In this document: piece after piece, positions 4,102-58,636 of the stretch | Layout: every line of letters starts with the position of its first letter | How positions within the stretch are numbered: the stretch's first letter is position 1 | From: a virus | DNA: 64,000 nucleotides | Reading direction: 5' to 3' (one strand) | Virus record (IMG/VR): IMGVR_UViG_3300034683_000192 | Span: 96,001 to 160,000 of that record | The notes under the pieces: model-generated | Database searches by the model: none | What the model saw: only the letters and a program-made list of their open reading frames with translations | Told to the model about the DNA's origin: nothing | Program-made: the position numbers and the translations under genes

Positions 4102-4191
4102 TGGCGGAAGGAGAGGGATTCGAACCCCCGGTAGGTTTCCCTACGTCGGTTTTCAAAACCGATGCAATTAGCCAGACTCTACCATCCTTCC
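4102..4191 (-). tRNA. tRNA-Ser(UGA)
   Basis: GGAAGGA/TCCTTCC acceptor stem, TCGGT-TTTGAAA-ACCGA anticodon arm, long variable arm, GGTTCGAATCC, encoded CCA. Confidence 0.95.
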
Positions 4192-4202
4192 GTAAATTGC
4201 AT

Positions 4203-4586
4203 CTATTCGGGAGTGCGGAATCCGAGCTTGGAGAATCTCCGCAGATTGTTAATAATCCGCGTTACACCCGCGAGAAGTTCATGAATCAGTCGGACCTTGA
4301 AGACGTCAGCATCAGTAGGAGACGCTGCATATCTGATACGATCTGTGAACTGAAACCCATCGGTGCTTCTCCACAGAACACAACTAAAATCCGTCGTGTC
4401 CATGGTCAGTTCAACCCATACGGTCTGATCAGAGCTGATGGATACATCGAGCTGAAACCAATCCAGAGGATCATTGATATCGTGAATGTTCGCGCAGATC
4501 TCTTCGACGACAGTCTTCGCGATTGTGAACTGTTCTTCGCATGTGAGTTCCCGATGTCGTCCAACACTAGCGATGCTTGCGCACAT
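4203..4586 (-). CDS. Hypothetical protein within the RNA gene cluster
   Basis: 127-aa ORF with AGGAG RBS, filling the gap between tmRNA and tRNA-Ser. Confidence 0.65.
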   Translation of the reverse strand: MCASIASVGRHRELTCEEQFTIAKTVVEEICANIHDINDPLDWFQLDVSISSDQTVWVELTMDTTDFSCVLWRSTDGFQFTDRIRYAASPTDADVFKVRLIHELLAGVTRIINNLRRFSKLGFRTPE

Positions 4587-4614
4587 ATATCTTAATCTCC
4601 TGAAGTTGTAAAGT

Positions 4615-5010
4615 TGGTGGAGCCGGTGGGAATCGAACCCACGTCTTGAACTGGAATCAGAATTGCATCTACGTGTGTATCCTCAGTGTTTTCTGACCCG
4701 AGGCTTGGTCGCTCCTATTTTTCAAAGGTGGGGTACGGAGAACTCCTACCACCTAGGGTTGACAATTTAAATGCGATCACCACTCGCATCGATCCAGATA
4801 AGTTTCGCACTTCTTCTTTATCTGACGTCCAGAGAAGTACGTGCTCCTCTAGGGAGCAGTGGCTCTAGGCGGCGTTCGCGTAAGCGAAGTCGTCACGAGC
4901 GGGAGCAGCAAGAGCGTTGGCAGTTGCTTTCGTTGGGCTTTTTAACGCGGCCAGCCCACCGCGACACGCAGCAGTATCCTATCCAACTCAATCGAAACCA
5001 GGGCGGCCCC
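4615..5010 (-). ncRNA. ssrA: tmRNA (tag ANALAAPARDDFAYANAA*, 4865-4921)
   Basis: 5' GGGGCCG...GGTTTCGA and 3' GGGTTCGATTCCCACCGGCTCCACCA. G3.U wobble alanine acceptor; no anticodon arm; internal tag ORF starts after AACT at GCC AAC and ends in AA-stop; 396 nt. Confidence 0.93.
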
Positions 5011-5019
5011 ACTTTAATT

Positions 5020-5095
5020 TGGCGCGCTCGAGAAGGGTCGAACTTCTGACCAAGAGTTTAGAAGACTCCTGCTCTATCCACTGAGCTACGAGCGC
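5020..5095 (-). tRNA. tRNA-Arg(UCU)
   Basis: GCGCTCG acceptor stem, GGAGT-CTTCTAA-ACTCT anticodon arm, CCA end, 76 nt. Confidence 0.93.
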
Positions 5096-5110
5096 ATGAA
5101 TTGTAAAATT

Positions 5111-5186
5111 TGGTCGGAACGACTGGATTTGAACCAGCGACCCCTGCTCCCAAAGCAGGTGCGCTGCCAGGCTGATCTACGTTCCG
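5111..5186 (-). tRNA. tRNA-Pro(UGG)
   Basis: CGGAACG acceptor stem, CCTGC-TTTGGGA-GCAGG anticodon arm, GGTTCAAATCC, CCA end. Confidence 0.95.
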
Positions 5187-5203
5187 ATAAGGAGAAAGAA
5201 ATT

Positions 5204-5278
5204 TGGAGCGGGGTACGGGATTTGAACCCGCAACAGCTGGGGCGGAGACCCAGTATTCTACCTTTGAATTAACCCCGC
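5204..5278 (-). tRNA. tRNA-Gly(UCC) with non-canonical anticodon loop
   Basis: GCGGGGT/ACCCCGC acceptor, U73 discriminator, CCA end. Anticodon arm CTGGG-TCTCCGC-CCCAG has C33, G37 and C38. Confidence 0.85.
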
Positions 5279-5281
5279 ATC

Positions 5282-5825
5282 TCACATACACTCGCGTTTC
5301 TTGGTAGGAAGACCAAGAAAATTGGCCCATTTACGAACCGCGTTATCACTAACGCCATATTTCTCACCAACTTTCGTCACTGGCATTTGTGAAAGGTCTC
5401 TTCCTAGTTGATCAGCGTCCGGTCGATTCACCTTTCGTGACGACATCTGTGCACACGAGTATGAACAAAATTTTTTCTGTCCTATATCTAGAGATTTTCC
5501 ACACTCCAGACAATGTTTATTCCGTAATGCTTCTTTCGCTACATGTATGGGATTTGGAAGTATTACTCGGGTATCCATCCATTTATGTAATTTTGCATGC
5601 TGGGAGTTACGAAGAATCAGTAAATTTCTTGGGTCGTTGTTACTTTTATTGCAATCAAGATGATGAACTACTTCGTCACTTCGCAATCCTTCAGGAACTG
5701 TGGAATCCGCTACTAGAATGTGTTCGTATACATATCCCTTATAACTTCCAGATCTGATTGCTCTAGGATGCTCTGGAGCATAACACTAATACATATCCTG
5801 AATCTTTTATTATCCGTTTATTCAC
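5282..5825 (-). pseudogene. HNH homing endonuclease with a +1 frameshift near 5783
   Basis: GAGGAG RBS and GTG at 5825 give MNKRIIKDSGYVLV. One extra T then shifts to YAPEHPRA...GYVYEHILV...EVVHHLDCNKSNNDPRNLL (HNH core), followed by a Zn-finger and HTH tail. Confidence 0.8.
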
Positions 5826-5846
5826 CAAATCTTCTCCTCAAATAGT

Positions 5847-6035
5847 AAAAATACGTACTCACCCAAAGACGAACCAATCCACCGGTCATTGTCCTTAGGT
5901 GAGTACGGGTTTCCTCCACGGAGGACGATTCAATCACGGAGCCTATGTGACTGAACCAAGTTGAAGTTTACGTAGCTGGATTGCTCCTGCCCCTCAACCC
6001 TGGGATAACCACTTCCCAGTTAGACTATGATGAAT
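5847..6035 (-). ncRNA. Candidate structured ncRNA / leader (five hairpins, unidentified)
   Basis: Non-coding stretch with consecutive stems: CTGGGA/TCCCAG, GTTGAG...TTCAAC with an internal GGA-GCAA-TCC, TTCAGTCAC/GTGATTGAA, CCTCC/GGAGG, and CGTACTCACC/GGTGAGTACG followed by TATTTTT. A TATACTAC promoter-like motif lies at 6042-6049. Confidence 0.45.
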
Positions 6036-6067
6036 TCCCGTGTAGTATACCCGGAGTATGTTTTTGT

Positions 6068-6373
6068 TTACATCCGGTATGGGAACTTCTCCTCAATTGA
6101 TGCTGTGATGATCCGGATTGCATTGATCCTTTTGTAGTGCCATGCCGCTCTGGCGAACAATCTGTTTCCCGGAACAACTATAGTTACTGACACCTTATCA
6201 GGATCAAGGTAGGTGTGAAGCCTTTTCAGAAATGTCTCGACTGAGCAAGTTCCGTGTAGACGATGTTCGGAATATTCGAGAACTGTCAAATTCTCGATAT
6301 TCGAATTGATGAGGATATGAACCCCTTCAATTTGGTATACTTGCTCTGCGAATTTCTTCAAGCTCACAAGCAT
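6068..6373 (-). CDS. Hypothetical protein
   Basis: 101-aa ORF, tightly packed in a minus-strand operon. Confidence 0.6.
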   Translation of the reverse strand: MLVSLKKFAEQVYQIEGVHILINSNIENLTVLEYSEHRLHGTCSVETFLKRLHTYLDPDKVSVTIVVPGNRLFARAAWHYKRINAIRIITASIEEKFPYRM

Positions 6374-6376
6374 CTG

Positions 6377-6853
6377 CTAGTCTCCTTTGCTCGCGCAGTC
6401 CGGGTGGCGTCTTTCCAGTTCACCAATGAGTTCGTCATCGGTGAATGAGGAAAGCTGTAACTTTCTCGTTCCGACGTTTTTCTTCGGAAGGCTATCGTAG
6501 ATGAGCGCGACTATCGCGGAGGCGATGCCAGTCGCACACATGATAGCAATATATCCGTATACCATCTTGGTCGTGGACGTCACATCCATGGTACTGGGAC
6601 CACAGATGGAAAGTAGTGCCAGCAGCATCGACAGGCCCACGGCGATGCCGAGATACACCATACCTCGGAAACTCAGTCCGTCGTATTGTGCCACTGCGTG
6701 CGGATACAGATGCATCTTTCTTCCCCAGTACTGAGACGTCTGGATTGCGCGATGATTCATGATCGCGAGTTTGCGTGCCTTGCGCAGTCGTTCGAATTTC
6801 CATGCAGCGTATTTTCCGGAGATTTTCTGCCAGAGAAAAGAAAAGATGTTCAT
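6377..6853 (-). CDS. Two-TM membrane protein containing a 23-aa copy of the RNAP beta' bridge helix
   Basis: RKLAIMNHRAIQTSQYWGRKMHL matches RKAAIMNHKAIQTSQYWGRKMHL in 30867-32867. Two hydrophobic segments follow. GGAG RBS. Confidence 0.75.
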   Translation of the reverse strand: MNIFSFLWQKISGKYAAWKFERLRKARKLAIMNHRAIQTSQYWGRKMHLYPHAVAQYDGLSFRGMVYLGIAVGLSMLLALLSICGPSTMDVTSTTKMVYGYIAIMCATGIASAIVALIYDSLPKKNVGTRKLQLSSFTDDELIGELERRHPDCASKGD

Positions 6854-7004
6854 GACTACTCCTCCGATTTGTCAGATGTACGGTAGATGATTCGTTCTTT
6901 GTCACTGAAGATTGAGACGACGAACAGAATAAAGAACCACAGCCGGTAACCATTTCCGAAGATTACCGACAGAAATAACAGAAAACTAAGCATGTGGTCC
7001 TCTC

Positions 7005-7352
7005 TTATTTTTCATCTTTCTCCAAGAACATCGATGGTGCAACCTGAAAAAACTTCCCGAGGCGAACTGCAGTTCTTTTCGTGATCTTGTGAGTTCCAGT
7101 TTCGATCGCAGACAGTAACGACTGGCTCAGTTTCGTTGCATTCGCGACATCCGCCTGTGAAAGATATCTCGATGTACGATATTCCCGTAGCCGCTCATGC
7201 GGTCTTAAATCATCAATCAGAACGGGTGGATTTTCGTTAGACTCCGGTGAAATTAGTTCCACAATGCCGCCAAGTCTGGTGACAAAATTTCGAATAAGCT
7301 TAAGATCAGTATTCGGAATAATGCATCTGATCTCGACGAATCCATCCATCAT
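7005..7352 (-). CDS. XRE-family HTH protein (antitoxin/regulator-like)
   Basis: RLREYRTSRYLSQADVANATKLSQSLLSAIETG...AVRLGKFF is a typical HTH_3 pattern. Confidence 0.8.
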   Translation of the reverse strand: MMDGFVEIRCIIPNTDLKLIRNFVTRLGGIVELISPESNENPPVLIDDLRPHERLREYRTSRYLSQADVANATKLSQSLLSAIETGTHKITKRTAVRLGKFFQVAPSMFLEKDEK

Positions 7353-7362
7353 CGCGATTCTC

Positions 7363-8037
7363 CTAAAATGGTTCTTTCCATTTGACTTTGGTCAGTTCGC
7401 ACAGAAGAGAACACATTCTCCCTTTTGCTGCGTAGAATTCTTCGGTAGTAGGAAGTCTATCAAAATCCGCACGCACCGTGAAGTGATAGTAATCCGGGAT
7501 GTGAGCTATGCTGGCATCGTTGTAGTGTGTACCTGCACGCATCTTTCCGAGATACTTATGTGGTGCACTTTTCTTACCTGCAGGTGATTTGAGATACACC
7601 GGACGGTTCTCGAATCTCGTATCGTGAAATGGACCAATGTCGATTCGTATTCCGGTCTCTGGGGTAAGTTTTACGATTCCTTGAAATGCGAAATTGGAAT
7701 CGAATGCACAGAGAAGGTCGTCATACCCCGAGGATATGATTTTGTTGATGAGTGTGACTATCGTTTCAGAATGAGATACGAATGTCACGTAAGGAGTTGA
7801 ACACGACTTAACATCACCTTTTTCGGAGTGTGCGATATGTCCTTCACAGCTGAACAAGGTGAAAATGTGCTTTTTCCAGAGTGTCGCGATGAGATGTGCA
7901 TGAGCGTCATCCACATGAATGAGTTTCTTCAGTGGTTCGTATATTCTTTCGCAAGTGAACATCGGGCACAGTCCAGAGACTTTTTGTGCACTGACATCAG
8001 AAATAACCGAGTTGCACATTCTACATATCCAGGACAT
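7363..8037 (-). CDS. Hypothetical protein (CxxC; T.FSCEGH motif)
   Basis: 224-aa ORF in the operon. Confidence 0.7.
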   Translation of the reverse strand: MSWICRMCNSVISDVSAQKVSGLCPMFTCERIYEPLKKLIHVDDAHAHLIATLWKKHIFTLFSCEGHIAHSEKGDVKSCSTPYVTFVSHSETIVTLINKIISSGYDDLLCAFDSNFAFQGIVKLTPETGIRIDIGPFHDTRFENRPVYLKSPAGKKSAPHKYLGKMRAGTHYNDASIAHIPDYYHFTVRADFDRLPTTEEFYAAKGRMCSLLCELTKVKWKEPF

Positions 8038-8048
8038 GCCCAGCTCCT

Positions 8049-8435
8049 TTATTCATCGAAGATTGTTGAGACTTCTTTGTAAACCGATTTGGTGACATTC
8101 TCGTACGCCGATGCGTGGATCGTCCGTAGAATTCTACCCACGAAAAATCCGAACATTGCAGCATGCCCCCAGAAGACCAGACAATACCAGAACTTCCAAC
8201 TCATCACAGAATTGAAGCATACCCAGCCACAGACGAACGTGATCGCAGTACCAGTAAGCGCAAGTATGAGAAAAATTACTTGAACTGGATCGATCCTCCC
8301 GGGAGTGAATACCCGGGAGGTTTCCATGACCTGGATGAATTCTTTTTCTTTTGAATCGCTGCTTCTCATGACGTCTTGATACGGTTTGGTCATATGGGGA
8401 GAAGCAATCCAGAGATGGTGACCCATATATGCCAT
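8049..8435 (-). CDS. Hypothetical membrane protein
   Basis: Two hydrophobic segments; packed in the operon. Confidence 0.6.
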   Translation of the reverse strand: MAYMGHHLWIASPHMTKPYQDVMRSSDSKEKEFIQVMETSRVFTPGRIDPVQVIFLILALTGTAITFVCGWVCFNSVMSWKFWYCLVFWGHAAMFGFFVGRILRTIHASAYENVTKSVYKEVSTIFDE

Positions 8436-8438
8436 ATC

Positions 8439-8825
8439 TTACTCCTCAATAAGAAAATGAACGTCGTCAAAATTTGTGCAGTACGTATACAGTTTGATCT
8501 TGTCTTTCAAGATCGTACCGTTCGTACCTTTTGGAGTAGTGACAACAGGGTACCCCTTGAGGTTATCCGGACATCTCATTCTGGTAAGAGTCCCAGTACG
8601 CACCACGGTATATTCCGGATTCACTTTTTCAAGGTCCGCATTGAGTGCATCGGACTGAGGATATGAAATATCCACGATCTTCAGATCGCGCAATTTGTTT
8701 TCAGTATATCGCTGCGCTATTTGTCCTACCACTACCAGAAGAACGACGATGCACAGCAGAATACCAATAAGGATATTCGTATTACGATCACCGATCATCT
8801 TTACGAATTCTGTGGGTTCATCCAC
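8439..8825 (-). CDS. Hypothetical protein with N-terminal TM anchor
   Basis: ILIGILLCIVVLLVVVG segment. Confidence 0.65.
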   Translation of the reverse strand: MDEPTEFVKMIGDRNTNILIGILLCIVVLLVVVGQIAQRYTENKLRDLKIVDISYPQSDALNADLEKVNPEYTVVRTGTLTRMRCPDNLKGYPVVTTPKGTNGTILKDKIKLYTYCTNFDDVHFLIEE

Positions 8826-8894
8826 GAGTAAACTCCGTTTATTCGATTGCGTTGTTCACTATTGGAATGTATGTCTGAAACTTTGAAGAGTTTA

Positions 8895-9329
8895 TTATAC
8901 TCTTACAAGATACGGTAATATTTCTCTTACTTCCATAAGCATTTTCCCTAGTTTATTGAGACCAAATCCAGTTTTGAGACATACTCCCCAGTACTTGTCA
9001 TTGTGCCAATTACCTTCTATGATTGTTCTATTTCCTGTAGCATAAAGTCTATCTGCCAGATAAGGATCAGAGAATTTAGCCATCAGACCGATCATCATAA
9101 TCCTATCTTTGTCTCTGTCGAAAGTAGGACGAATCGTAATAATTCGTCCTAATCGGCGTGCATCTTTTGGTGAGTCTGAATTTAGTATACGTTCAAAGTC
9201 TTCATCGTGAAGAGCTTTGTTTGCTTGATAAAAATGTTCGTTTGTTTTCCACCAAAACCCATGTATACACATTGGACTTTCGTAGAAATTACTTAAGAAT
9301 CGGTATTCTCCACGAAATTGTGAAATCAT
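8895..9329 (-). CDS. NADAR (YbiA-like) family protein
   Basis: FRGEYRFLSNFY, TNEHFYQA.K, AKFS...L..TG...IIEGN..NDKYWGV...G.NKLGKMLMEVRE. Confidence 0.9.
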   Translation of the reverse strand: MISQFRGEYRFLSNFYESPMCIHGFWWKTNEHFYQANKALHDEDFERILNSDSPKDARRLGRIITIRPTFDRDKDRIMMIGLMAKFSDPYLADRLYATGNRTIIEGNWHNDKYWGVCLKTGFGLNKLGKMLMEVREILPYLVRV

Positions 9330-9811
9330 TCGAAATACAATGATTCATCGTACGTGAAGGAGTTACCACAACCAGAACAAAAGAAGGTTTCATTCATCAC
9401 TTCTTCTACTCCTGTAAGTACTTTTTGGTACGAATTATACCACTGTCCATCGATAGTCTGAAACACGGGATACGTGAACAATGCTCCTTTATGTTCAATT
9501 GGTAATCGACAACTTATGATCTTGGATAAACACTTCGGACATTCTACGAGATTTGCGTATCGTAGAAGTACATCACCGTGACATGCTTTTGGTGCACAGA
9601 AACATACGAGATCTTTTCCCCGGAGCTCATGCAGTGATGACATAAGCTCCGGGGTATTCAGAAGACGCAGTTCGTAAAGCTTCACGGAAGTTTCCCGATC
9701 CATGTCTAGACCGAGGGCAAAGGGATTTCCCCATTTCGTGGGACGTCCGATAAACACAGCATTCTTCGGGATTCCGTGAATATGCTTATTAAGAACCTGC
9801 GGTCTCCTCAT
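9326..9811 (-). CDS. DUF4326-family protein with C-terminal Zn ribbon
   Basis: VFIGRPTKWGNPF...ELRGKDLVCFCAPKACHGDVL. Confidence 0.85.
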   Translation of the reverse strand: MRRPQVLNKHIHGIPKNAVFIGRPTKWGNPFALGLDMDRETSVKLYELRLLNTPELMSSLHELRGKDLVCFCAPKACHGDVLLRYANLVECPKCLSKIISCRLPIEHKGALFTYPVFQTIDGQWYNSYQKVLTGVEEVMNETFFCSGCGNSFTYDESLYFE

Positions 9812-25646: not shown

Positions 25647-26699
25647 CTACATTTGAACAATATTGACGGTACCATTTCCACCTTTACCACCGGCGACATT
25701 TCCCGTACCACCATTTCCGCCATTGGCAACGATCTTGGAAATATCGTTGATACTTCCCTTGTGGAAGATATGAATGGCTCCGCCACCAGATCCACCACCA
25801 CCGACTTTATGTGTCCCACCAGAACCATTACCACCAGCAACACCATTGGCTTCAATTGCTCCGGCAGGTCCTATGATGATATCACCATCGACAAAAAGGA
25901 TCATCAACCCTCCGGTACCAGTTCCTCCAGCAGTACCACCAGTACCACTTACGAGAATCTTTCCGTGTGTTCCACCAGGATTCCCAGCACCTCCCCCTGC
26001 AGTTCTTCCGTATCTACCACCATCAGTATCTTTGGCTACGCCATTCCCACCTTTTCCACCGTCAACTGCACCATCTTGTGCAGATCCTGAGTTACCATAG
26101 AGGTTCACTCCACCACCACCAGTGCCGCCGGAAAATGATGTACCTGCGTTCCCGCGACCAGCATTACCAGATCCTCCACCACCAGTAGTTCTTCCACCAG
26201 AGCCACCACCGCCACAGGCACCATTTACACCAATGTTTCCATTGGCACGCGATGAGTTTGCAGGGTATGCGGAAATAGCTCCACCAGTAGGACCAATGAA
26301 GGGGATATTTTCTGGAGTAAAGATATCACTACTGTGGAAATAGACTACTTTGTTTTCGTGATCTATTCCTACGAATTTTCCAGGAACATTGGCACCCCTC
26401 GCAGACATCGAAAGGCGACCATTCACAGTCAGATTTCCTCTGATGTGAATGTATAACCCCATACATCTGTTCGAGGGTCTCACGAGATGACCAGCATTGA
26501 CAGTAAAATCGTCAAATGTAAGAAGAACTGGATCTCCATCAAGAATGGATGCAAATTCGTCAGTAGTAGTGACACCAGTAGAAACGAAATTACCTGCCGA
26601 TTCTGGAAAACTTAATGCACGTTCGGCAGGAAGAAGAGGCTCTGCGTATTTTTTACGCAACTTATATCCGGCGTCTGTAAGTTCAATAGCTATCGGCAT
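25647..26699 (-). CDS. Glycine-rich virion/tail-associated protein, copy 2
   Basis: Paralog of 26776-27888 and 3-845, with conserved N- and C-terminal blocks and a variable Gly-rich middle. Confidence 0.75.
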   Translation of the reverse strand: MPIAIELTDAGYKLRKKYAEPLLPAERALSFPESAGNFVSTGVTTTDEFASILDGDPVLLTFDDFTVNAGHLVRPSNRCMGLYIHIRGNLTVNGRLSMSARGANVPGKFVGIDHENKVVYFHSSDIFTPENIPFIGPTGGAISAYPANSSRANGNIGVNGACGGGGSGGRTTGGGGSGNAGRGNAGTSFSGGTGGGGVNLYGNSGSAQDGAVDGGKGGNGVAKDTDGGRYGRTAGGGAGNPGGTHGKILVSGTGGTAGGTGTGGLMILFVDGDIIIGPAGAIEANGVAGGNGSGGTHKVGGGGSGGGAIHIFHKGSINDISKIVANGGNGGTGNVAGGKGGNGTVNIVQM

Positions 26700-26775: not shown

Positions 26776-27888
26776 CTATATTTGTACTATATTGACAGAT
26801 CCATTCCCACCTTTACCTCCAATCGAAGGGGCAGATGGCGATGTTCCACCATTTCCACCAATTGCTTTAATCTTTGTCGGATCATTGATTGTACCTTTAT
26901 GGAAGATGTGAATTGATCCACCTCCGGAGCCTCCTCCACCAGGACCATTATGACTGGTTCCAGTAGGACGACCAGCTCCACCAGCAGATCCATTGGAGTT
27001 GATTTCTCCTGAAGCTCCAAAAATAATCTTTCCACCAACAATAAGGACAATCAGCCCACCTGTACCAGTCTCACCGGGAGCACACAATCCAGGTCTAGCG
27101 GTAGCTCCACCGGGATTCCCTGCACCACCAGGAGCAGATGTCAGTGTTATTCCGAGTGATGTTGCAGGGTTGTATACAAATTTACCATCTCCACCCTTAC
27201 CAGCATTTTCTCCAGCATTTTCACAGATGGCCGATGCTTCATAACCAGTCGCACCACCACTCCCAGATCCACCAGAGAAAGAGGTACCTGCACCGCCATT
27301 ACCAGATTTTGCATATGCTGCAGTATATCCGGTACGGTTGGGAACACTTGCCATCGCACCACCCGATCCACCACCACCAGAACATCTGGATTTGATTCCG
27401 CCAGCAATACCCAATGCATATGCATTTCCTGCGGTAGGACGTGATGCAGCAACTCCTACCGCACCTACTCCACCTACGGCAGGAATGACATATACTTCGG
27501 GAACTGCGCTATATTTGTCTTGATCAGTGAATGCAAAAAATTTGTTAGCAGGATCAATATTCACGAACTTACCCGGAGCATTCGCTCCTCTGGAGGTCAT
27601 AGTCAATAGACCATTGATGGTAAGATCACCTTCGATGTAAATAAACATTCCTTTGCATCGATTTTTGGGTCGAACAATATGACCAGCATTGATGGTCATA
27701 TTTTTGAAAGAAAGAACAACTGGATCTCCATCTACAGTAGATTCAAATTCATCTGTGGTAGTAACTCCGGATGAAATAAAATCTTCAGTAGGAATGGAAA
27801 ATTTGAATCCAGGATCTGCGATCAATTCGCCAGCATATCTTGCCTGTAATGCACTACCAGCATTAGGAAGTTCAATCGCTAAGGGCAT
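26776..27888 (-). CDS. Glycine-rich virion/tail-associated protein, copy 3
   Basis: Same conserved blocks; shares its upstream leader sequence with copy 2. Confidence 0.75.
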   Translation of the reverse strand: MPLAIELPNAGSALQARYAGELIADPGFKFSIPTEDFISSGVTTTDEFESTVDGDPVVLSFKNMTINAGHIVRPKNRCKGMFIYIEGDLTINGLLTMTSRGANAPGKFVNIDPANKFFAFTDQDKYSAVPEVYVIPAVGGVGAVGVAASRPTAGNAYALGIAGGIKSRCSGGGGSGGAMASVPNRTGYTAAYAKSGNGGAGTSFSGGSGSGGATGYEASAICENAGENAGKGGDGKFVYNPATSLGITLTSAPGGAGNPGGATARPGLCAPGETGTGGLIVLIVGGKIIFGASGEINSNGSAGGAGRPTGTSHNGPGGGGSGGGSIHIFHKGTINDPTKIKAIGGNGGTSPSAPSIGGKGGNGSVNIVQI

Positions 27889-30866: not shown

Positions 30867-32867
30867 TTACCGAATCCAATCGTAGGAGAGACCGTAGTTC
30901 CGGTCAAACGCACCCACAACTCTGGAGACGGTATACATCGTCGGATCCGCGAATCTCTTCTTGTGTTCTTCGTACGAGAATTGTCCAGAGTACGTCCTGT
31001 TATGGATGATATCTGGAGTATTCCCGAAAATCACATGATCCAGATCTTCCACTATCGGAATATCCCACCGATCCTTATCGGTGATCATGTGTGCTTTCAA
31101 AATCATCTCGAGATGGAGAATGTTCGTCTTTGGAACTTTCGACCAGACAAGGTCGCAGAAGTGATCGAGCGCTTGTCCGAATGATTTGTATTTCGACAAT
31201 CCATTGCTCTCGAGGAATTTGATAACCGAGAGAACATAGGCATACGTCGAGTCGTTGACGATCGCTGCACGAAAGATCGGTATGGTCGGGATATCCTGCA
31301 TAGGAATCCACAGAACATTTTCATCGACCACGAGATCGATGTACTTTTCCTTCATGTACAGAAGAAACTCCATCGTCAGAAATGGCTTTTGACCATCGAC
31401 AATGAGAGGAAATTCTGACATGATACCAGATGGATCTTTCACCAGAATCGAGGATATGCTACTGAATCGATCTTCTGGAAGTGCAGCATCTTCTGTCAAT
31501 TCCAAAAGGTCGGACTGTGTTCCGTAGAAGTCATCGAAAAGAATCCCTACGGACCACGGCTCTTTGACATTTTTGAATTCAGGAGTCAGATGAATACCAT
31601 CTTCTTTTCGAACCAGAAAGTCTGTCGCTTGTGTCGGAATCACGTACAGTTGTGACAGAGTCTTGATCAGGTGTTTTGTTGAGAGAATCATCTGGGATAC
31701 CTGGGACACCACTTCCGATGCCGAGTTAATCCCGATGTTAATCCCGTTACTGTTCTTGAATTCGAATCCCTGAAGGAACTTGGGATACTCTTCAGAGATC
31801 CCTCGAACCGACAAGTTACGAAGAAGAAGTCCACCGCAGACCATGCATACGCCATCAGTATGACGACAACCACCAGGAGTGATCATGTTTACTTCATGGT
31901 CGATGAAGGACTTGATGTTTCTGCTCGTGAGAGGAATGATGCTACCATCATCCAGAATGATGAATTTTCCGACATAGTTCTTTGCGAAGCTTGCGCGAAT
32001 AGTGCGCCTGATCGTCTTGTGTGCTCCACAATCCGGCATATATGCCCGGAGAAGTTCCGCTGTGATAAGGTGCATCTTTCTGCCCCAATACTGAGACGTC
32101 TGGATGGCCTTATGGTTCATGATGGCAGCTTTTCTACCTGCCTGAGATTCGATAGCGAGATCGACTATGTTCTGCATCCCGGAAACGACAGAACCTTTCA
32201 CGGGACGAGGAATGACTTTGTCGTTGACTTCAGTACGAAGCCCAAGAGCAATGAGCACTTGCTGCAATTGGTTAGCATTCAGAATGTCTGCTTGTTGCCA
32301 ATGCAAAAGTGCTTCATTTTTGAGTAGACCTCTTGTACCAAGAGCTTTGCACAACTTTTCTTTGGCATCAGAGATCGTTTGTTCAATGACATTTGTTCCG
32401 TACTTGTTATCCAGATCAACCGAGATGATGGGTTTGATTACTGGATCTTGCACGATCTCAACGAGATCGACGATGGATATCCCGCAGTGATGTTCTGCAA
32501 GTTCCATCGTACCGAAGTCATCAAGATAGTTGATGCAATGCCAGAGTCTCCAAGTAAATTCATCGAGACCTCGTTCGTCGAGATCCAAATATATGTCGCC
32601 GTATACTTCAGACAAGATGGACTGGCAAACGGATTTGCTGAACACCTTGAATTCGTGCATATGCCTTTTCAGTACAGGCATGCCCATGCTGCGGTAGATT
32701 TCCCAAATAGGGAGATTGACGAGTACTTGCTGAATAAGGTGTTCACTTACACCATCGGCAAATTCTACGTCCACCCATCCTTGTGGATGTCGGTGTTTGG
32801 AGATGATTTCCTTTGCAAATGCATACGACATGTCTTCTTGTCTGATTAACATGCGCGTGCCTCCCAA
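30867..32867 (-). CDS. Non-virion RNA polymerase beta'-like subunit, C-terminal part (phiKZ gp74-like)
   Basis: Bridge helix ESQAGRKAAIMNHKAIQTSQYWGRKMHL, Zn cysteines (C...CRHTDGVC..CGG), trigger loop SQMILSTKHL. Confidence 0.88.
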   Translation of the reverse strand: MGGTRMLIRQEDMSYAFAKEIISKHRHPQGWVDVEFADGVSEHLIQQVLVNLPIWEIYRSMGMPVLKRHMHEFKVFSKSVCQSILSEVYGDIYLDLDERGLDEFTWRLWHCINYLDDFGTMELAEHHCGISIVDLVEIVQDPVIKPIISVDLDNKYGTNVIEQTISDAKEKLCKALGTRGLLKNEALLHWQQADILNANQLQQVLIALGLRTEVNDKVIPRPVKGSVVSGMQNIVDLAIESQAGRKAAIMNHKAIQTSQYWGRKMHLITAELLRAYMPDCGAHKTIRRTIRASFAKNYVGKFIILDDGSIIPLTSRNIKSFIDHEVNMITPGGCRHTDGVCMVCGGLLLRNLSVRGISEEYPKFLQGFEFKNSNGINIGINSASEVVSQVSQMILSTKHLIKTLSQLYVIPTQATDFLVRKEDGIHLTPEFKNVKEPWSVGILFDDFYGTQSDLLELTEDAALPEDRFSSISSILVKDPSGIMSEFPLIVDGQKPFLTMEFLLYMKEKYIDLVVDENVLWIPMQDIPTIPIFRAAIVNDSTYAYVLSVIKFLESNGLSKYKSFGQALDHFCDLVWSKVPKTNILHLEMILKAHMITDKDRWDIPIVEDLDHVIFGNTPDIIHNRTYSGQFSYEEHKKRFADPTMYTVSRVVGAFDRNYGLSYDWIR

Positions 32868-34990
32868 GGGTCATCTCTTCGTACCATAGCTTCATCTCCA
32901 CCAATCTCGATACCACAAACCGTGAGAAGTTGATTCGTCACAGCGAGCATCGTATTGCTTTTCGTGAGTTGATCCTCATCAAAGTCGAGCCAATCGAGAC
33001 GAGTAGGTCTATCCATAGTCAACAACTGCTCGTTGAGAGCGTTGGTTGCTTCCGGAGAGTTGGCATACATCGTCAAGATCCGATAAGACAGCTTACCGAT
33101 GGCCATCGTCAGAAGACGATATTCATCTTCACCCAGTCTGATCGGAACCATACCAATCGGAGACTGAGATTTTGCTTTCTTATGCTTTGCTCTTACTGGT
33201 ACTCCGAGCTGGTTGACGTACGTCATACCGCACGATCTAGCGTGCGGAATTTTGCAGAGGATGTAGATGTACTTTCGCGCTATCCACATCGGTCTGATCG
33301 TACGAACTCTCCGAATTACGTTACCATCACTGTCAAGCTGATTGAACTCGACAGGTGTAGGCTTCACGTCATACTTCTTAACCATGTACTCCACCCACTC
33401 AGGGGTGATGGTCTCGAGAGTCGGAGGAATGACCAGAATCGGGTATCCCCGTTTACGGATTTCCCGCATGTACTGTTTGATACGCTTTGGCGTATTCACT
33501 GTCCGTGCAACGAGATCTGCGTATACCTCGTTAACATCAGCGAAGAACCCTAAGAGATCCTCAAACTGCTGTTCATCGTCATACTGTCGCTCTTCCCATC
33601 TGCGCATGACACACCCTGCAACGAAATTGATGAACTGCTCATAGAGCTGTCCCAAGTTCATGCGGTTAACCACCGCTTCGGGTGCAATGATGATATCTGC
33701 TACAGTCCCGTAATCATCTACGGGCATGTGCTCTTTCTTTCTGATTTCACTGATAACGCCTTTACCACCTTCACGTCCTGATGACTTGTTCCCAAGTGAT
33801 ACGACGTTGTCGTACTTGTAGGTGATAACGAGACGTGTGAACTGAATTGGTTCTCCCTTGAATGAGAACTTCGGAACAGTGCGAATTTCTTTGACTCGCT
33901 CTCTGTTAGCAGCGAGAATCAGTTTCGCACGTTCGACGAGTGATGAAAATTCAGGAGAAGGGGATCTGCTTTTCTTCTTGCACTCGTTTTCGTATACCTG
34001 AACGACCGTGCGATGAAATGCAAGTCCGTTGTCGATATACTTTTCAAGCTGAGCGAAAATGTTCTGGGGTGTCTTCACCTGACGATTGAAGTTTCGGTAG
34101 ACATCAATGTCGATGACAGTTGCACCCGGTTCTGCAAATCGAATATCGTCATGACTGAACTGCGGTTCGCAGAGCGCCATATCGGTCATGTCGCTGATCA
34201 TTGAAGATTCGTTGACTGTACGGAATCCACAGATGATTCCATCGTCACGAACTCGCTCGTGGATATCCGGCATGAACTTGTAATCATCACCAGTCGAATA
34301 AAGGTTCAGAGGAACCATATTCTTTTCGATGTCGATCACGAGAGTTCTGATCCCAAGAGTCCCCAGTCTCTTTGCAAGTTCATCAGAAATGCAGAATGCA
34401 TCTTCGACTGTTTCTTTTGCCGACATGTAGCACACGTTGGCATTGACGCCGAGACAATACTTGGAGTTTTGAACCGCAGGTGAATTGGTAAGTGTGATTC
34501 CTTTCGGAATACCGACACCAGCTCGTATGAAGTTGTCATTTACCCGATTTGCATAGCCGAAGCCATCCGCGCATTTCGTGTATCTGGAAACTTCTTTGTA
34601 GTGGACTTGTCCATCTTCGTCACCCACATAAACGACGACCATCGATGGATTGAACAGAATCGGATCAGCTCCGATCTGTGTGCGATATTTCGGAATGACT
34701 GCTACTGTGGTAGCTGCCTGTTCCATACGAGTGTCGTTGAATGTGTAATCTGCGAAATGTCTTTCGTATCCAGTACAAATTGCAGGTACCTCTGCACCAG
34801 CAGGAATAGGCGCCTGGACGATGTTACTGGAATACATCCCCATACGCTGAGACGTGATGAATTGTACGAACGGGACCAAGTTCGTTTTGGTCCCGAGTAA
34901 TCGGATGTCAGTCGAGAGATCTCGCATGAGTGGATATCTCTCAACAAATTCATCCCAATACTCTGGGATCGGAAACTCGGAGTTCCGCAT
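32846..34990 (-). CDS. Non-virion RNA polymerase beta-like subunit, C-terminal part (phiKZ gp71-73-like)
   Basis: TSQRMGMYSSNIVQA, GVNANVCYM...EDAFCISDE, GNKSSGREGGKGVIS, DIII.PE.VVNRMNLGQLYEQ, PIRLGEDE. Start at MRNSEF. Confidence 0.92.
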   Translation of the reverse strand: MRNSEFPIPEYWDEFVERYPLMRDLSTDIRLLGTKTNLVPFVQFITSQRMGMYSSNIVQAPIPAGAEVPAICTGYERHFADYTFNDTRMEQAATTVAVIPKYRTQIGADPILFNPSMVVVYVGDEDGQVHYKEVSRYTKCADGFGYANRVNDNFIRAGVGIPKGITLTNSPAVQNSKYCLGVNANVCYMSAKETVEDAFCISDELAKRLGTLGIRTLVIDIEKNMVPLNLYSTGDDYKFMPDIHERVRDDGIICGFRTVNESSMISDMTDMALCEPQFSHDDIRFAEPGATVIDIDVYRNFNRQVKTPQNIFAQLEKYIDNGLAFHRTVVQVYENECKKKSRSPSPEFSSLVERAKLILAANRERVKEIRTVPKFSFKGEPIQFTRLVITYKYDNVVSLGNKSSGREGGKGVISEIRKKEHMPVDDYGTVADIIIAPEAVVNRMNLGQLYEQFINFVAGCVMRRWEERQYDDEQQFEDLLGFFADVNEVYADLVARTVNTPKRIKQYMREIRKRGYPILVIPPTLETITPEWVEYMVKKYDVKPTPVEFNQLDSDGNVIRRVRTIRPMWIARKYIYILCKIPHARSCGMTYVNQLGVPVRAKHKKAKSQSPIGMVPIRLGEDEYRLLTMAIGKLSYRILTMYANSPEATNALNEQLLTMDRPTRLDWLDFDEDQLTKSNTMLAVTNQLLTVCGIEIGGDEAMVRRDDPWEARAC

Positions 34991-35044
34991 TTTTAAACAT
35001 CTCCTGAGTTTGCAGATTATTGAATGAGGCAAGGATGCAAACAA

Positions 35045-35052
35045 GTAATATA
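35045..35052 (-). promoter_or_regulatory. TATATTAC promoter motif upstream of RNAP beta
   Basis: Exact motif. Confidence 0.6.
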
Positions 35053-35087
35053 TACCCACACCTCTTTTGGGAATCTAGGAGTTCGTT

Positions 35088-51231: not shown

Positions 51232-51342
51232 GGGTTTCTCCTTTGTGGTGACTATTGACCGCCAAATGAGGTTAATGAAGCTTCTGGCCTAATGACGCTT
51301 ATATTGTTACTGGTGGGAGGAATTTCCTCCCACCAGATACAA

Positions 51343-55316: not shown

Positions 55317-56966
55317 CTATCTGTGACGGATGGTGCGACCACCCCAGATGCCAGAGCCCTGGCGAATGCTCTGCCCACGACGAGTGTGGATGGACGTACG
55401 ACCCATGATCGCAGAGATGTTGCGACCGCGGTCGAAGTAGGCGCCGATGCTGATGGGAGCATTGGTGTTGTAGTCGGTACGAACGCGCAGCGAGCTGCCG
55501 GCGGCCTTCATGATGGCTTCGAGCGCATCTTCACGCAGCGGGCACATGTAGGTCATGTACAGCGGCTGGACATTCTTGTAGCCGAGGTCACGAATGGAGT
55601 CGATCCGGCGCAGCGCATCGTTGTCGTAGGTGAGGAAGTCCCCGAGCAGACGACGATCGCTGGTAGCCTGAATGGCATCGAAGTAGTCGATTTCGCGGGA
55701 ATCGACCATGCGGCCTTCCTTGTTCACCAGAGTGGTGAGCATGCCGATCGGCTTGTCGAACATGGTATCCGGACCGTCAGTGATGTGATTGCTTCCGAAG
55801 AATTCAGCGAAGTCTTCGAGAATCGGGCCCTGCATCTTTTCGTTGGCCATGGCATACATGCCGGGCAGGGTCACGCGACCGGGCTGGATGTCGACCACGA
55901 CGATCGGTTCGAACATGCGGTCACGGACGAAGCGATTGAGCTGATCGATGTTGGTAAGTTCTTCGGGACGACCATCTTCATCGAACCACAGATTGCCGAG
56001 GTTCGGGCTGTTCGGGCCGAAGGATTGGAACGGAGACAGCCAGCCCTTATGGGTGATGGCGTAGTCCAGGAAGTTGGCCAGCAGAACGGGGAACATCCGA
56101 GAATGACGGATGTAGGAGGCCCATTCGGTGAGGTGCAGGATCGGCTGGTACATGAGGTCGCGGCCTTCGTAGACTTCATAGAAGTCCGTGAAACCGCCCA
56201 TGGCGCCGAGTTCGATGTATTCGTCGCGACGATCACGATCATCACGATTACGATCACGGTCGCGAACATCGCGATCACGATCGTCCGTCAGCATGTTCAT
56301 GACGATGCCGACGTCGATGCGGCCGAGCACCTTGTGCGGGGTCAGCGCGCCGATGACGTCGTGTACACGGTTGGGATCGGTGACGATGTCGTAGCGGCAT
56401 TCCTTCACCATCTTGTAGGTGATGTCGCTGTAGAGACCGCCGGTGAGTGCTTCCTTCACCGTGTCGAACCACTGGGTCGGCTTTTCGTAGTCGCCACGCA
56501 GAACGACGTAGACGTCCAGCAGCGATTCGGCATTGCCGATTTCCAGAGCGATGCGGAATTCGTCATGCACGCGGGAGACGTAGTCTTCGGTACCGCCGCG
56601 ATAAGCATCGGGGCGCATGTGTTCTTCGAAGATCAGCGCGACGGCGATGCCGTCCTTGACGAACAGTTCGGCGCTGGCGGCGGGCATACGCACGCTCGTG
56701 ATGCCGAGTTCCGGAGCCTTGGTGAAGGATTCCTTCAGCTGCGTCAGGAAGGTCGTACCTTCCGGCGACAGTGCCTGGTGCTGAGCCTTGCTGCGCACGT
56801 AGTGGATGAGCGATGCACCGCTCGAACCAGACGAGGAGGAAGCTGCACGTTCGGCGCGAGTGTCGTCCTGAACGGGCGACACGTTGTCATGAACGGATCC
56901 CACAGGGGATGCGATCGGATGACCCTGGGTCTTGTCATTGTCATCGATGGCGAATTCAACGGGCAT
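55317..56966 (-). CDS. chmA: Chimallin (phage nuclear shell protein), divergent
   Basis: Directly upstream of the beta'-N subunit, as in all Chimalliviridae. 549 aa with a disordered N-terminus. Blocks align by eye, from memory, to 201phi2-1 gp105 (RIDVGI~RADIVV, MGGFTDF~VAMFTNL, LANF...GWLSPF~LSNAF...AWARPF, NLGNL~DIGAL, PIVVVDI~PVFQIDL, VDSREID~RDRRDLD). GC3-rich codons and an early promoter. Confidence 0.78.
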   Translation of the reverse strand: MPVEFAIDDNDKTQGHPIASPVGSVHDNVSPVQDDTRAERAASSSSGSSGASLIHYVRSKAQHQALSPEGTTFLTQLKESFTKAPELGITSVRMPAASAELFVKDGIAVALIFEEHMRPDAYRGGTEDYVSRVHDEFRIALEIGNAESLLDVYVVLRGDYEKPTQWFDTVKEALTGGLYSDITYKMVKECRYDIVTDPNRVHDVIGALTPHKVLGRIDVGIVMNMLTDDRDRDVRDRDRNRDDRDRRDEYIELGAMGGFTDFYEVYEGRDLMYQPILHLTEWASYIRHSRMFPVLLANFLDYAITHKGWLSPFQSFGPNSPNLGNLWFDEDGRPEELTNIDQLNRFVRDRMFEPIVVVDIQPGRVTLPGMYAMANEKMQGPILEDFAEFFGSNHITDGPDTMFDKPIGMLTTLVNKEGRMVDSREIDYFDAIQATSDRRLLGDFLTYDNDALRRIDSIRDLGYKNVQPLYMTYMCPLREDALEAIMKAAGSSLRVRTDYNTNAPISIGAYFDRGRNISAIMGRTSIHTRRGQSIRQGSGIWGGRTIRHR

Positions 56967-58380: not shown

Positions 58381-58636
58381 TTAGTAGAAACTTTATGTTT
58401 ATCTGTATATCTACGAGATCCTTTGATGGATCTCGTTTATCATTTTCCTCTTTCTTTTATCCTCCCCACCACCCACCCTATAGAGGGTGTTTCCTTATTT
58501 AAATACTAAATACAAAATAAGGAAGTGTCTCACAGATATGCAGACTTCGTCTGCCTCCCATTTTCTCCGAAGAGAAATGTTCGCAAAATATAGATAGTCT
58601 CTGTAAAAAAATACAAAAGTTCATTCTGTAGAGAAA

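Follow-up and report, generated by a model that had tools for sequence, protein, structure and literature searches.

A copy of the RNA polymerase bridge helix within a small predicted membrane protein of a phiKZ-like jumbo phage

An unusual question is posed by this locus: how did a helix from the catalytic core of a phage RNA polymerase (RNAP) come to lie in frame within a small predicted membrane protein of the same phage, and does it still act there as a piece of polymerase or does it serve some other purpose? We analysed a window of 64,000 nucleotides from a phage genome of 199,880 bp. Positions 6707–6775 (minus strand) encode RKLAIMNHRAIQTSQYWGRKMHL, within a 158-codon open reading frame (ORF158; P0001; 6377–6853, minus strand), and positions 32067–32135 (minus strand) encode RKAAIMNHKAIQTSQYWGRKMHL, within a 666-codon ORF (30867–32867, minus strand). 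The two segments are identical at 54 of 69 bases (15 differ) and at 21 of 23 residues, and 8 of the 10 differing codons are synonymous; the duplicate described in the initial annotation is thus real.

The donor (P0002, 666 aa) is the β′C subunit of the non-virion RNAP and an orthologue of phiKZ gp74 (phrog_3015, E = 5 × 10−81; PDB 7ogp_D, E = 3 × 10−88). The gene upstream of it, at 32846–35059, bears an Rpb2_6 domain. Residues 245–267 of β′C form the bridge-helix core that was the source of the copy: the profile of a 25-member β′C family aligns the donor segment with phiKZ ...SGTKALLYNKELLRVTEYFNRKSQL... and also with the E. coli-type β′ bridge helix, in agreement with the earlier reading of the copied segment as the β′ bridge helix. 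Three columns of the donor segment are invariant in the family (Y260, R263 and K264) and several more are nearly so. The copy is homologous by descent to the RNAP bridge helix (phiKZ nvRNAP gp74, PDB 7OGP and 7OGR; E. coli RpoC ~769–805), and keeps the family-invariant Y, R and K together with the near-invariant R, K, I, S and Q, so that the motifs Y..RK and RK...I..SQ are both present. Like the bridge helix, it is predicted to be helical. Unlike RNAP β′, ORF158 has only ~26–33 residues of this ancestry and nothing of the surrounding catalytic architecture, and in place of a helix that spans the cleft of a polymerase the copy is fused to a membrane protein with two transmembrane (TM) helices.

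Self-comparison of the genome with blastn recovers the pair (E = 1.3 × 10−10), and pairwise blastp of ORF158 against β′C gives E = 3 × 10−12 across 26 residues (ORF158 residues 24–49). With hhalign, ORF158 residues 24–56 align to β′C residues 242–274 at 98% probability, which places the widest detectable homology at 6686–6784 (minus strand) around the 23-codon core (ORF158 residues 27–49). Past either end of this core the homology fades over a few codons, which fits a somewhat longer original duplicate with decayed flanks. An all-against-all blastp of the 1070 ORFs of the genome found the copy and its donor to be the sole short, high-identity pair of unrelated proteins; the remaining matches were ordinary paralogue families. 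We rejected the idea that ORF158 as a whole is an RNAP β′ paralogue or pseudogene, as homology in both blastp and hhalign is confined to residues 24–56, with none to other β′ features such as the F-loop, the trigger loop or the Zn/Cys motif, and TM helices make up the remainder.

The window derives from a metagenome contig, a circumstance in which a short internal repeat might be an assembly or chimera artefact. However, the copies differ at those 15 bases, and identical junctions recur where data of at least two further studies were assembled independently. The copy is found in frame in two independent Logan contigs. A third contig, of 210 nt and from a different study's activated-sludge run, carries it too, with flanks that map to 6681–6710 and 6764–6793. 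These contigs sustain the earlier exclusion of an assembly duplication, and we regard an artefact as effectively refuted, with a probability close to nil.

To whose polymerase the copy traces, and how far back, can be read from its differences. Between copy and donor, pS is 0.71; synonymous sites are saturated, and the duplication is therefore old. The nucleotide identity of the copy to the RNAP of its own genome is 54/69, compared with 33–54/69 for the RNAPs of seven relatives, and its amino acid identity is 21/23 to its own RNAP and 20/23 to the next best. The copy also shares states particular to its own RNAP lineage (Ile5, a basic residue 9 where relatives have Glu, and Met21-His-Leu). RNAP alleles of four metagenome runs are 98.6–99% identical to that of the window, and none resembles the copy. 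The only polymorphism in the donor segment among these runs is a silent TAT/TAC difference (Tyr) at 32088, seen in two of the four strains, TAC being the state of the copy. The initial annotation had raised the possibility that the segment was captured from the RNAP allele of a relative; no allele is closer than the phage's own, and the copy has lineage-specific states of its own RNAP, both of which count against this origin. The alignments establish that ~26–33 codons (residues 24–56, core 27–49) derive from the β′C bridge helix of this same phage, duplicated in frame. As its own RNAP is nearest, as the lineage-specific states are shared and as no strain has an RNAP like the copy, the same comparisons place the duplication within this lineage and exclude a recent capture from a sister phage.

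Gene organization and codon evolution establish ORF158 as a real protein-coding gene of this phiKZ-like jumbo phage. Its ATG start lies 5 nt past a GGAGGAG ribosome-binding site (6859–6865, minus strand; read directly from the sequence), and the gene is tightly packed between two others. Directly upstream is ORF45 (6856–6993, minus strand), which encodes a small hydrophobic protein and has its stop codon within the spacer between GGAGGAG and the ORF158 ATG; 3 nt past the ORF158 stop begins ORF101 (6068–6373, minus strand), which encodes a soluble protein. Two full-length orthologues of ORF158 (P0004, 97% identity; P0005, 82% identity), taken from Logan contigs of a digester-type sample (L001 and L002), have the same length and keep the copy. 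The three full-length alleles are equally long, and the comparison with the 82% allele gives an ω of 0.10 at dS 0.95. Both neighbours are kept in L001 and L002, with ω values against L001 of 0.25 for ORF45 and 0.05 for ORF101; the 224-aa gene further upstream was omitted from the dN/dS comparison with L001 because an indel misaligns it.

The product of ORF158 is a lineage-specific protein of 158 aa with two predicted TM helices, at residues ~64–86 (6596–6664, minus strand; Kyte–Doolittle 19-residue window ≤2.34) and ~97–120 (6494–6565, minus strand; ≤2.12). An AlphaFold2 (AF2) model, used for secondary structure only and of low confidence (mean pLDDT 51), has helices over residues 62–83 (low confidence) and 91–121, in addition to a single helix over residues 3–47. 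The 63 N-terminal residues carry a net charge of +10, the loop between the TM helices consists of 11 uncharged residues and the C-terminal tail is charged. From this pattern of charge and hydropathy, ORF158 is predicted to be an inner-membrane protein with both its N and C termini in the cytoplasm. The copy ends 14 residues before the first TM helix, in the predicted cytoplasmic arm, and so precedes the two TM helices as had been noted at first.

Families and models gave few leads as to function. ORF158 has no match to a Pfam, PHROG or PADLOC family, and was rejected as a known defence or anti-defence protein on the PADLOC models; ORF45 and the 224-aa neighbour likewise had no PADLOC match, a helix–turn–helix (HTH) neighbour matched generic HTH models and ORF101 had a marginal match only, to GajB (E = 0.0015). 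Searching the ESM Atlas with ORF158 returned feature scores that were all below 0.9 and TM-scores all below 0.5, and thus no usable lead. A complex prediction for ORF158 with ORF101 scored 0.00, a value that weighs neither for nor against binding. A scan of 5700–8900 for σ70 promoters and terminators gave nothing above shuffled sequences, and the phage-type TATAYTAC motif does not occur directly upstream of ORF158.

To what extent is the copied peptide itself maintained? Comparison of ORF158 with the 82% allele gives dS 0.95, dN 0.098 and ω 0.10 (Nei–Gojobori), a synonymous excess with P = 3 × 10−16. Within the 23 codons of the copy, the window and L001 differ by seven synonymous steps and one residue change (Met21 to Leu); among the orthologues ω for the copy is ~0.05, with a synonymous excess at P = 4 × 10−4. 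The initial annotation had argued for selection on the peptide from the silent differences between copy and donor. That argument is weak, because the synonymous excess could stem from the constrained RNAP branch alone, but its conclusion stands on the comparison of ORF158 with its orthologues. The copy is retained in both full-length orthologues and in the fragment found in another study. The orthologue test, together with this retention in a fourth strain, establishes at the codon level that the copy is kept in its new context by purifying selection acting on ORF158 itself. By the same estimates, constraint on the copy is not special: it is similar to that on residues 1–26 (ω = 0.05) and on the TM region (ω = 0.07), and when all replacement change is assigned to the branch of the copy, ω is ~0.09, equal to the gene-wide value. 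The linker (residues 50–63; pN 0.24 versus 0.04 in the core) and the C-terminal tail evolve faster.

These values also bear on the possibility that the segment is a functionless piece of a sister phage's RNAP, either captured recently or decaying as a pseudogene fragment. Phage genomes are mosaic and the block sits in a variable island, as such an origin would have it. But the copy is kept in four strains, across ORF158 alleles that differ by dS of up to ~1; ω within it is ~0.05; it is nearly identical to no RNAP allele that we have seen; and it is read in frame within a gene whose ribosome-binding site is strong. Neutral capture is therefore effectively refuted, and we give it hardly any weight. 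The two sequence-level outcomes that the initial annotation named as refuting it, loss of the segment from orthologues and near-identity of its DNA to another RNAP gene, were both looked for and neither was seen, which favours the finding.

A different kind of explanation is that the repeat matters as DNA. A homing endonuclease, or some other nuclease that attacks the conserved RNAP site, might have in it an additional target, a decoy or a diverged template for repair; or the repeat might be the footprint of endonuclease-driven recombination. Conserved sites in chimallivirus RNAP genes are targets of homing endonucleases, as for PhiPA3 gp210 (PMC11620839), an HNH endonuclease ORF lies ~1 kb downstream of the copy, and the two copies are direct repeats that differ mostly at silent sites. 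The PhiPA3 system resembles the present case in that it also concerns a part of a jumbo-phage RNAP gene that encodes the catalytic site and is highly conserved, and in that an HNH ORF is within ~1 kb of the copy; it works, however, on DNA at the DD motif of the β subunit of the virion RNAP (PMC11620839), whereas here conservation is at the protein level, the subunit is another one and there is no intron. The copy in the orthologues has seven silent changes, which include the longest shared run and the AGACGTCT palindrome, and the whole of ORF158 is under in-frame purifying selection. Neither a group I intron nor another RNA family occurs nearby, an Rfam search over the 64-kb window having returned tRNAs and a tmRNA only. 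Both mRNAs have the same sense, which excludes antisense pairing. With silent sites in the copy varying freely among orthologues and no intron, a role at the DNA level is very unlikely. We also rejected a homing-endonuclease or group I intron element as such: there is no intron fold, and ORF101 and a non-coding stretch separate the HNH ORF from the copy.

The HNH ORF (5282–5686, minus strand; 134 aa, TTG start) lies between the ORF158 module and a tRNA cluster, and matches phrog_15471 only from position 49 of the 183 of the profile; it may be N-terminally truncated. Downstream of the module the order is HNH ORF, three tRNAs, tmRNA and a fourth tRNA. The tmRNA (4615–5010; Rfam 130 bits; tag ANALAAPARDDFAYANAA) is thus inside a cluster of four tRNAs (Ser-TGA, Arg-TCT, Pro-TGG and Gly-TCC) at 4102–5278 (minus strand).

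We examined how widely ORF158 and its surroundings are distributed. An exhaustive HMMER search of 1.84 billion representatives found no homologue outside its own cluster. Among GenBank phages, tblastn with ORF158 gave no match and blastn with 5000–8200 matched tRNAs only. Scans of IMG/VR with ORF158, with its alignment and with the 224-aa neighbour found no relatives; a pattern scan of JGI metagenomes for the peptide found two RNAP genes only; and a GTDB scan found a single distant RNAP (23% identity). No short proteins bearing the region of β′C residues 215–300 were found. The nearest complete relative (220,982 bp, with terminal repeats; β′C 63% identical) has neither ORF158 nor a second copy of the bridge helix, and the 224-aa and ORF101 neighbours are missing from it as well. 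Four more distant relatives also lack ORF158, which matches nothing in them except the RNAP bridge helix.

The gene content around ORF158 varies between strains. An XRE-type HTH gene (7005–7352, minus strand) stands between the 224-aa gene and ORF45 in the window and in L002 and is absent from L001, in which ORF45 comes straight after the 224-aa gene. Upstream of ORF158 are small TM ORFs at 8049–8435 and 8439–8825, and upstream of these are adjacent genes for NADAR (E = 2 × 10−25) and DUF4326 (E = 2 × 10−21) proteins (8895–9811, minus strand); together with the small TM ORFs, they may constitute an anti-defence or accessory island. On the evidence of gene content, ORF158 belongs to a strain-variable accessory island that is restricted to close strains of this phage, since ORF158 and its neighbours are absent from the relatives, the HTH gene varies and small TM ORFs are nearby.

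Near-identical strains of the phage occur in subsurface, anaerobic-digester, wastewater and activated-sludge metagenomes from at least 11 studies. The L001 allele of the ORF158 island is far more divergent (dS ~1) than the RNAP alleles (98.6–99% identical in four runs). Elsewhere in the genome, we noted a direct repeat of 71 nt (94% identical, ~144 kb apart; window 51234–51304 and genome 2871–2941; mainly non-coding) and an inverted repeat of 68 nt (93%; window 58509–58576 and genome 15584–15648). These two other repeats of ~70 nt lie in intergenic sequence and may be regulatory elements. A four-member paralogue family (~330–370 aa, 40–60% identical) is located at 1–845, 25647–26699 and 26776–27888 of the window and at genome positions 165789–166871. 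Upstream of the gene for β′N (Rpb1_2) is a gene for a protein of 549 aa (55317–56966, minus strand) with no Pfam, PHROG or PDB sequence match. This is the gp54–gp55 order of phiKZ; only the position of the gene beside β′N suggests that it encodes chimallin and that the phage forms a nucleus.

With duplication, coding status and selection in place, the remaining question is what the helix does in ORF158. We lean, with a little more belief than doubt, towards the view that a fragment of the polymerase was exapted as a ready-made long basic helix and now forms part of the cytoplasmic arm, close to the membrane, of an accessory membrane protein. On this account, the stretch of ORF158 that comes from β′C would be part of a long, strongly basic (net +10) helical arm at the N terminus, before the first TM helix. 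This arm would serve the three-gene module of ORF45, ORF158 and ORF101 as a membrane-proximal interaction arm. The module would sit in a variable island, among small genes with membrane and host-interaction functions; superinfection exclusion, or another function at the envelope directed against host or competitor, would be a plausible role. The likeness to RNAP would then reflect inheritance and strong constraint, and would require no contact with the polymerase or with whatever recognizes it.

Small phage inner-membrane proteins offer the nearest comparison for this reading. Class II holins have two TM helices with both termini in the cytoplasm, and Imm and Sp of T4 are immunity and superinfection-exclusion proteins. 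ORF158 is likewise small, with two TM helices, predicted cytoplasmic ends and a charged C-terminal tail; its predicted topology, from hydropathy and charge distribution, is that of a class II holin. As with proteins of the Imm and Sp type, it is an ORFan that lies with other small membrane ORFs in an island that varies between strains, a context that is, by analogy, suggestive of a superinfection-exclusion protein; proteins of that kind have no sequence signature in common. Unlike either group, it has an unusually long basic N-terminal arm of 63 aa, and it has no sequence or profile similarity to such families. We rejected a class II holin, given neighbours without lysin or spanin domains and no holin match in Pfam or PHROG; neighbours that belong to no family leave some doubt. 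Several points count against exaptation as a basic arm: the AF2 model is of low confidence, no family assignment favours any particular membrane function, and the arrival in frame of an internal piece of 70–100 nt from an essential gene is left unexplained.

The pattern of change within the copy also counts against plain exaptation. Every family-invariant or near-invariant residue of the bridge helix is kept, and the positions that do vary in the copy (3, 9 and 21) rank 6, 2 and 1 of 23 in variability among RNAP bridge helices, a match with P = 0.003 by exhaustive enumeration. This hints at constraints like those on a bridge helix; a shared hydrophobic face could also account for it, and if the helix is amphipathic, the variable positions may simply be those on its non-packing side.

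Read as functional, the same pattern would mean that the membrane-tethered copy retains the binding properties of a bridge helix and acts as a mimic, a decoy or a regulator of polymerase assembly, an account that we find unlikely on the sequence evidence, if worth keeping in view. Its partners could be unassembled β or β′N subunits, the trigger-loop helices or nucleic acid, and a decoy could be directed at a host abortive-infection sensor that recognizes nascent β′C peptide. The outcome would be regulation or poisoning of polymerase assembly, either the phage's own or that of a co-infecting relative, or titration of the sensor. Several observations are in keeping with this: 21 of 23 residues were kept despite saturated synonymous sites; all family-invariant residues persist, with change only at the most variable positions of the RNAP family (P = 0.003); the flanks of the duplicate decayed and its core did not (pN 0.24 in linker 50–63 versus 0.04); and the copy is predicted to face the cytoplasm, where RNAP subunits are synthesized. 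In T4, a short stretch from inside an essential phage protein, the Gol peptide, triggers host defence through the Lit protease, a precedent that makes a decoy conceivable by analogy. There, too, a segment of ~25 residues from within an essential, conserved phage protein serves as a stand-alone recognizable unit. Gol, however, acts inside the capsid protein, whereas the copy in ORF158 is separate and tethered, and nothing here indicates a sensor, so the parallel is one of analogy only.

Other considerations weigh against a mimic. Structures of the assembled RNAP, including 7OGP, show the bridge helix buried inside the active-site cleft (PMC7618050), which makes it a poor surface epitope to mimic. 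The copy is no more constrained than the rest of ORF158, and two of its replacements, Leu3 and Arg9, are found in no RNAP of the family alignment. If a chimallin nucleus is built, as synteny suggests, the working nvRNAP would be kept apart from the membrane, and a poison of assembly would strike the phage's own enzyme too. In the literature we found no precedent for a copy or mimic of the bridge helix outside RNAP.

Phage genes are mosaic, and what is reused is normally a whole domain. In the accessory genes of phages, mosaicism below the level of the gene and exaptation are known phenomena; what is unusual in this case is the donor. Just one catalytic helix, buried within an essential enzyme, was copied in frame into a small and unrelated membrane protein, and stayed almost unchanged while silent sites became saturated. 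This is, at a minimum, a clean and datable case of exaptation below the level of the domain, through which part of a jumbo-phage ORFan accessory gene arose. Should the copy still act in the manner of a bridge helix, for example by binding polymerase subunits, nucleic acid or a host sensor, it would point to a previously unknown layer of polymerase control, or of conflict between phage and host or between phages, in nucleus-forming phages. A true mimic would represent a novel type of phage weapon or counter-defence made from a fragment of the catalytic core of an enzyme, and it would offer a defined peptide of 23 residues with which the idea could be tested.
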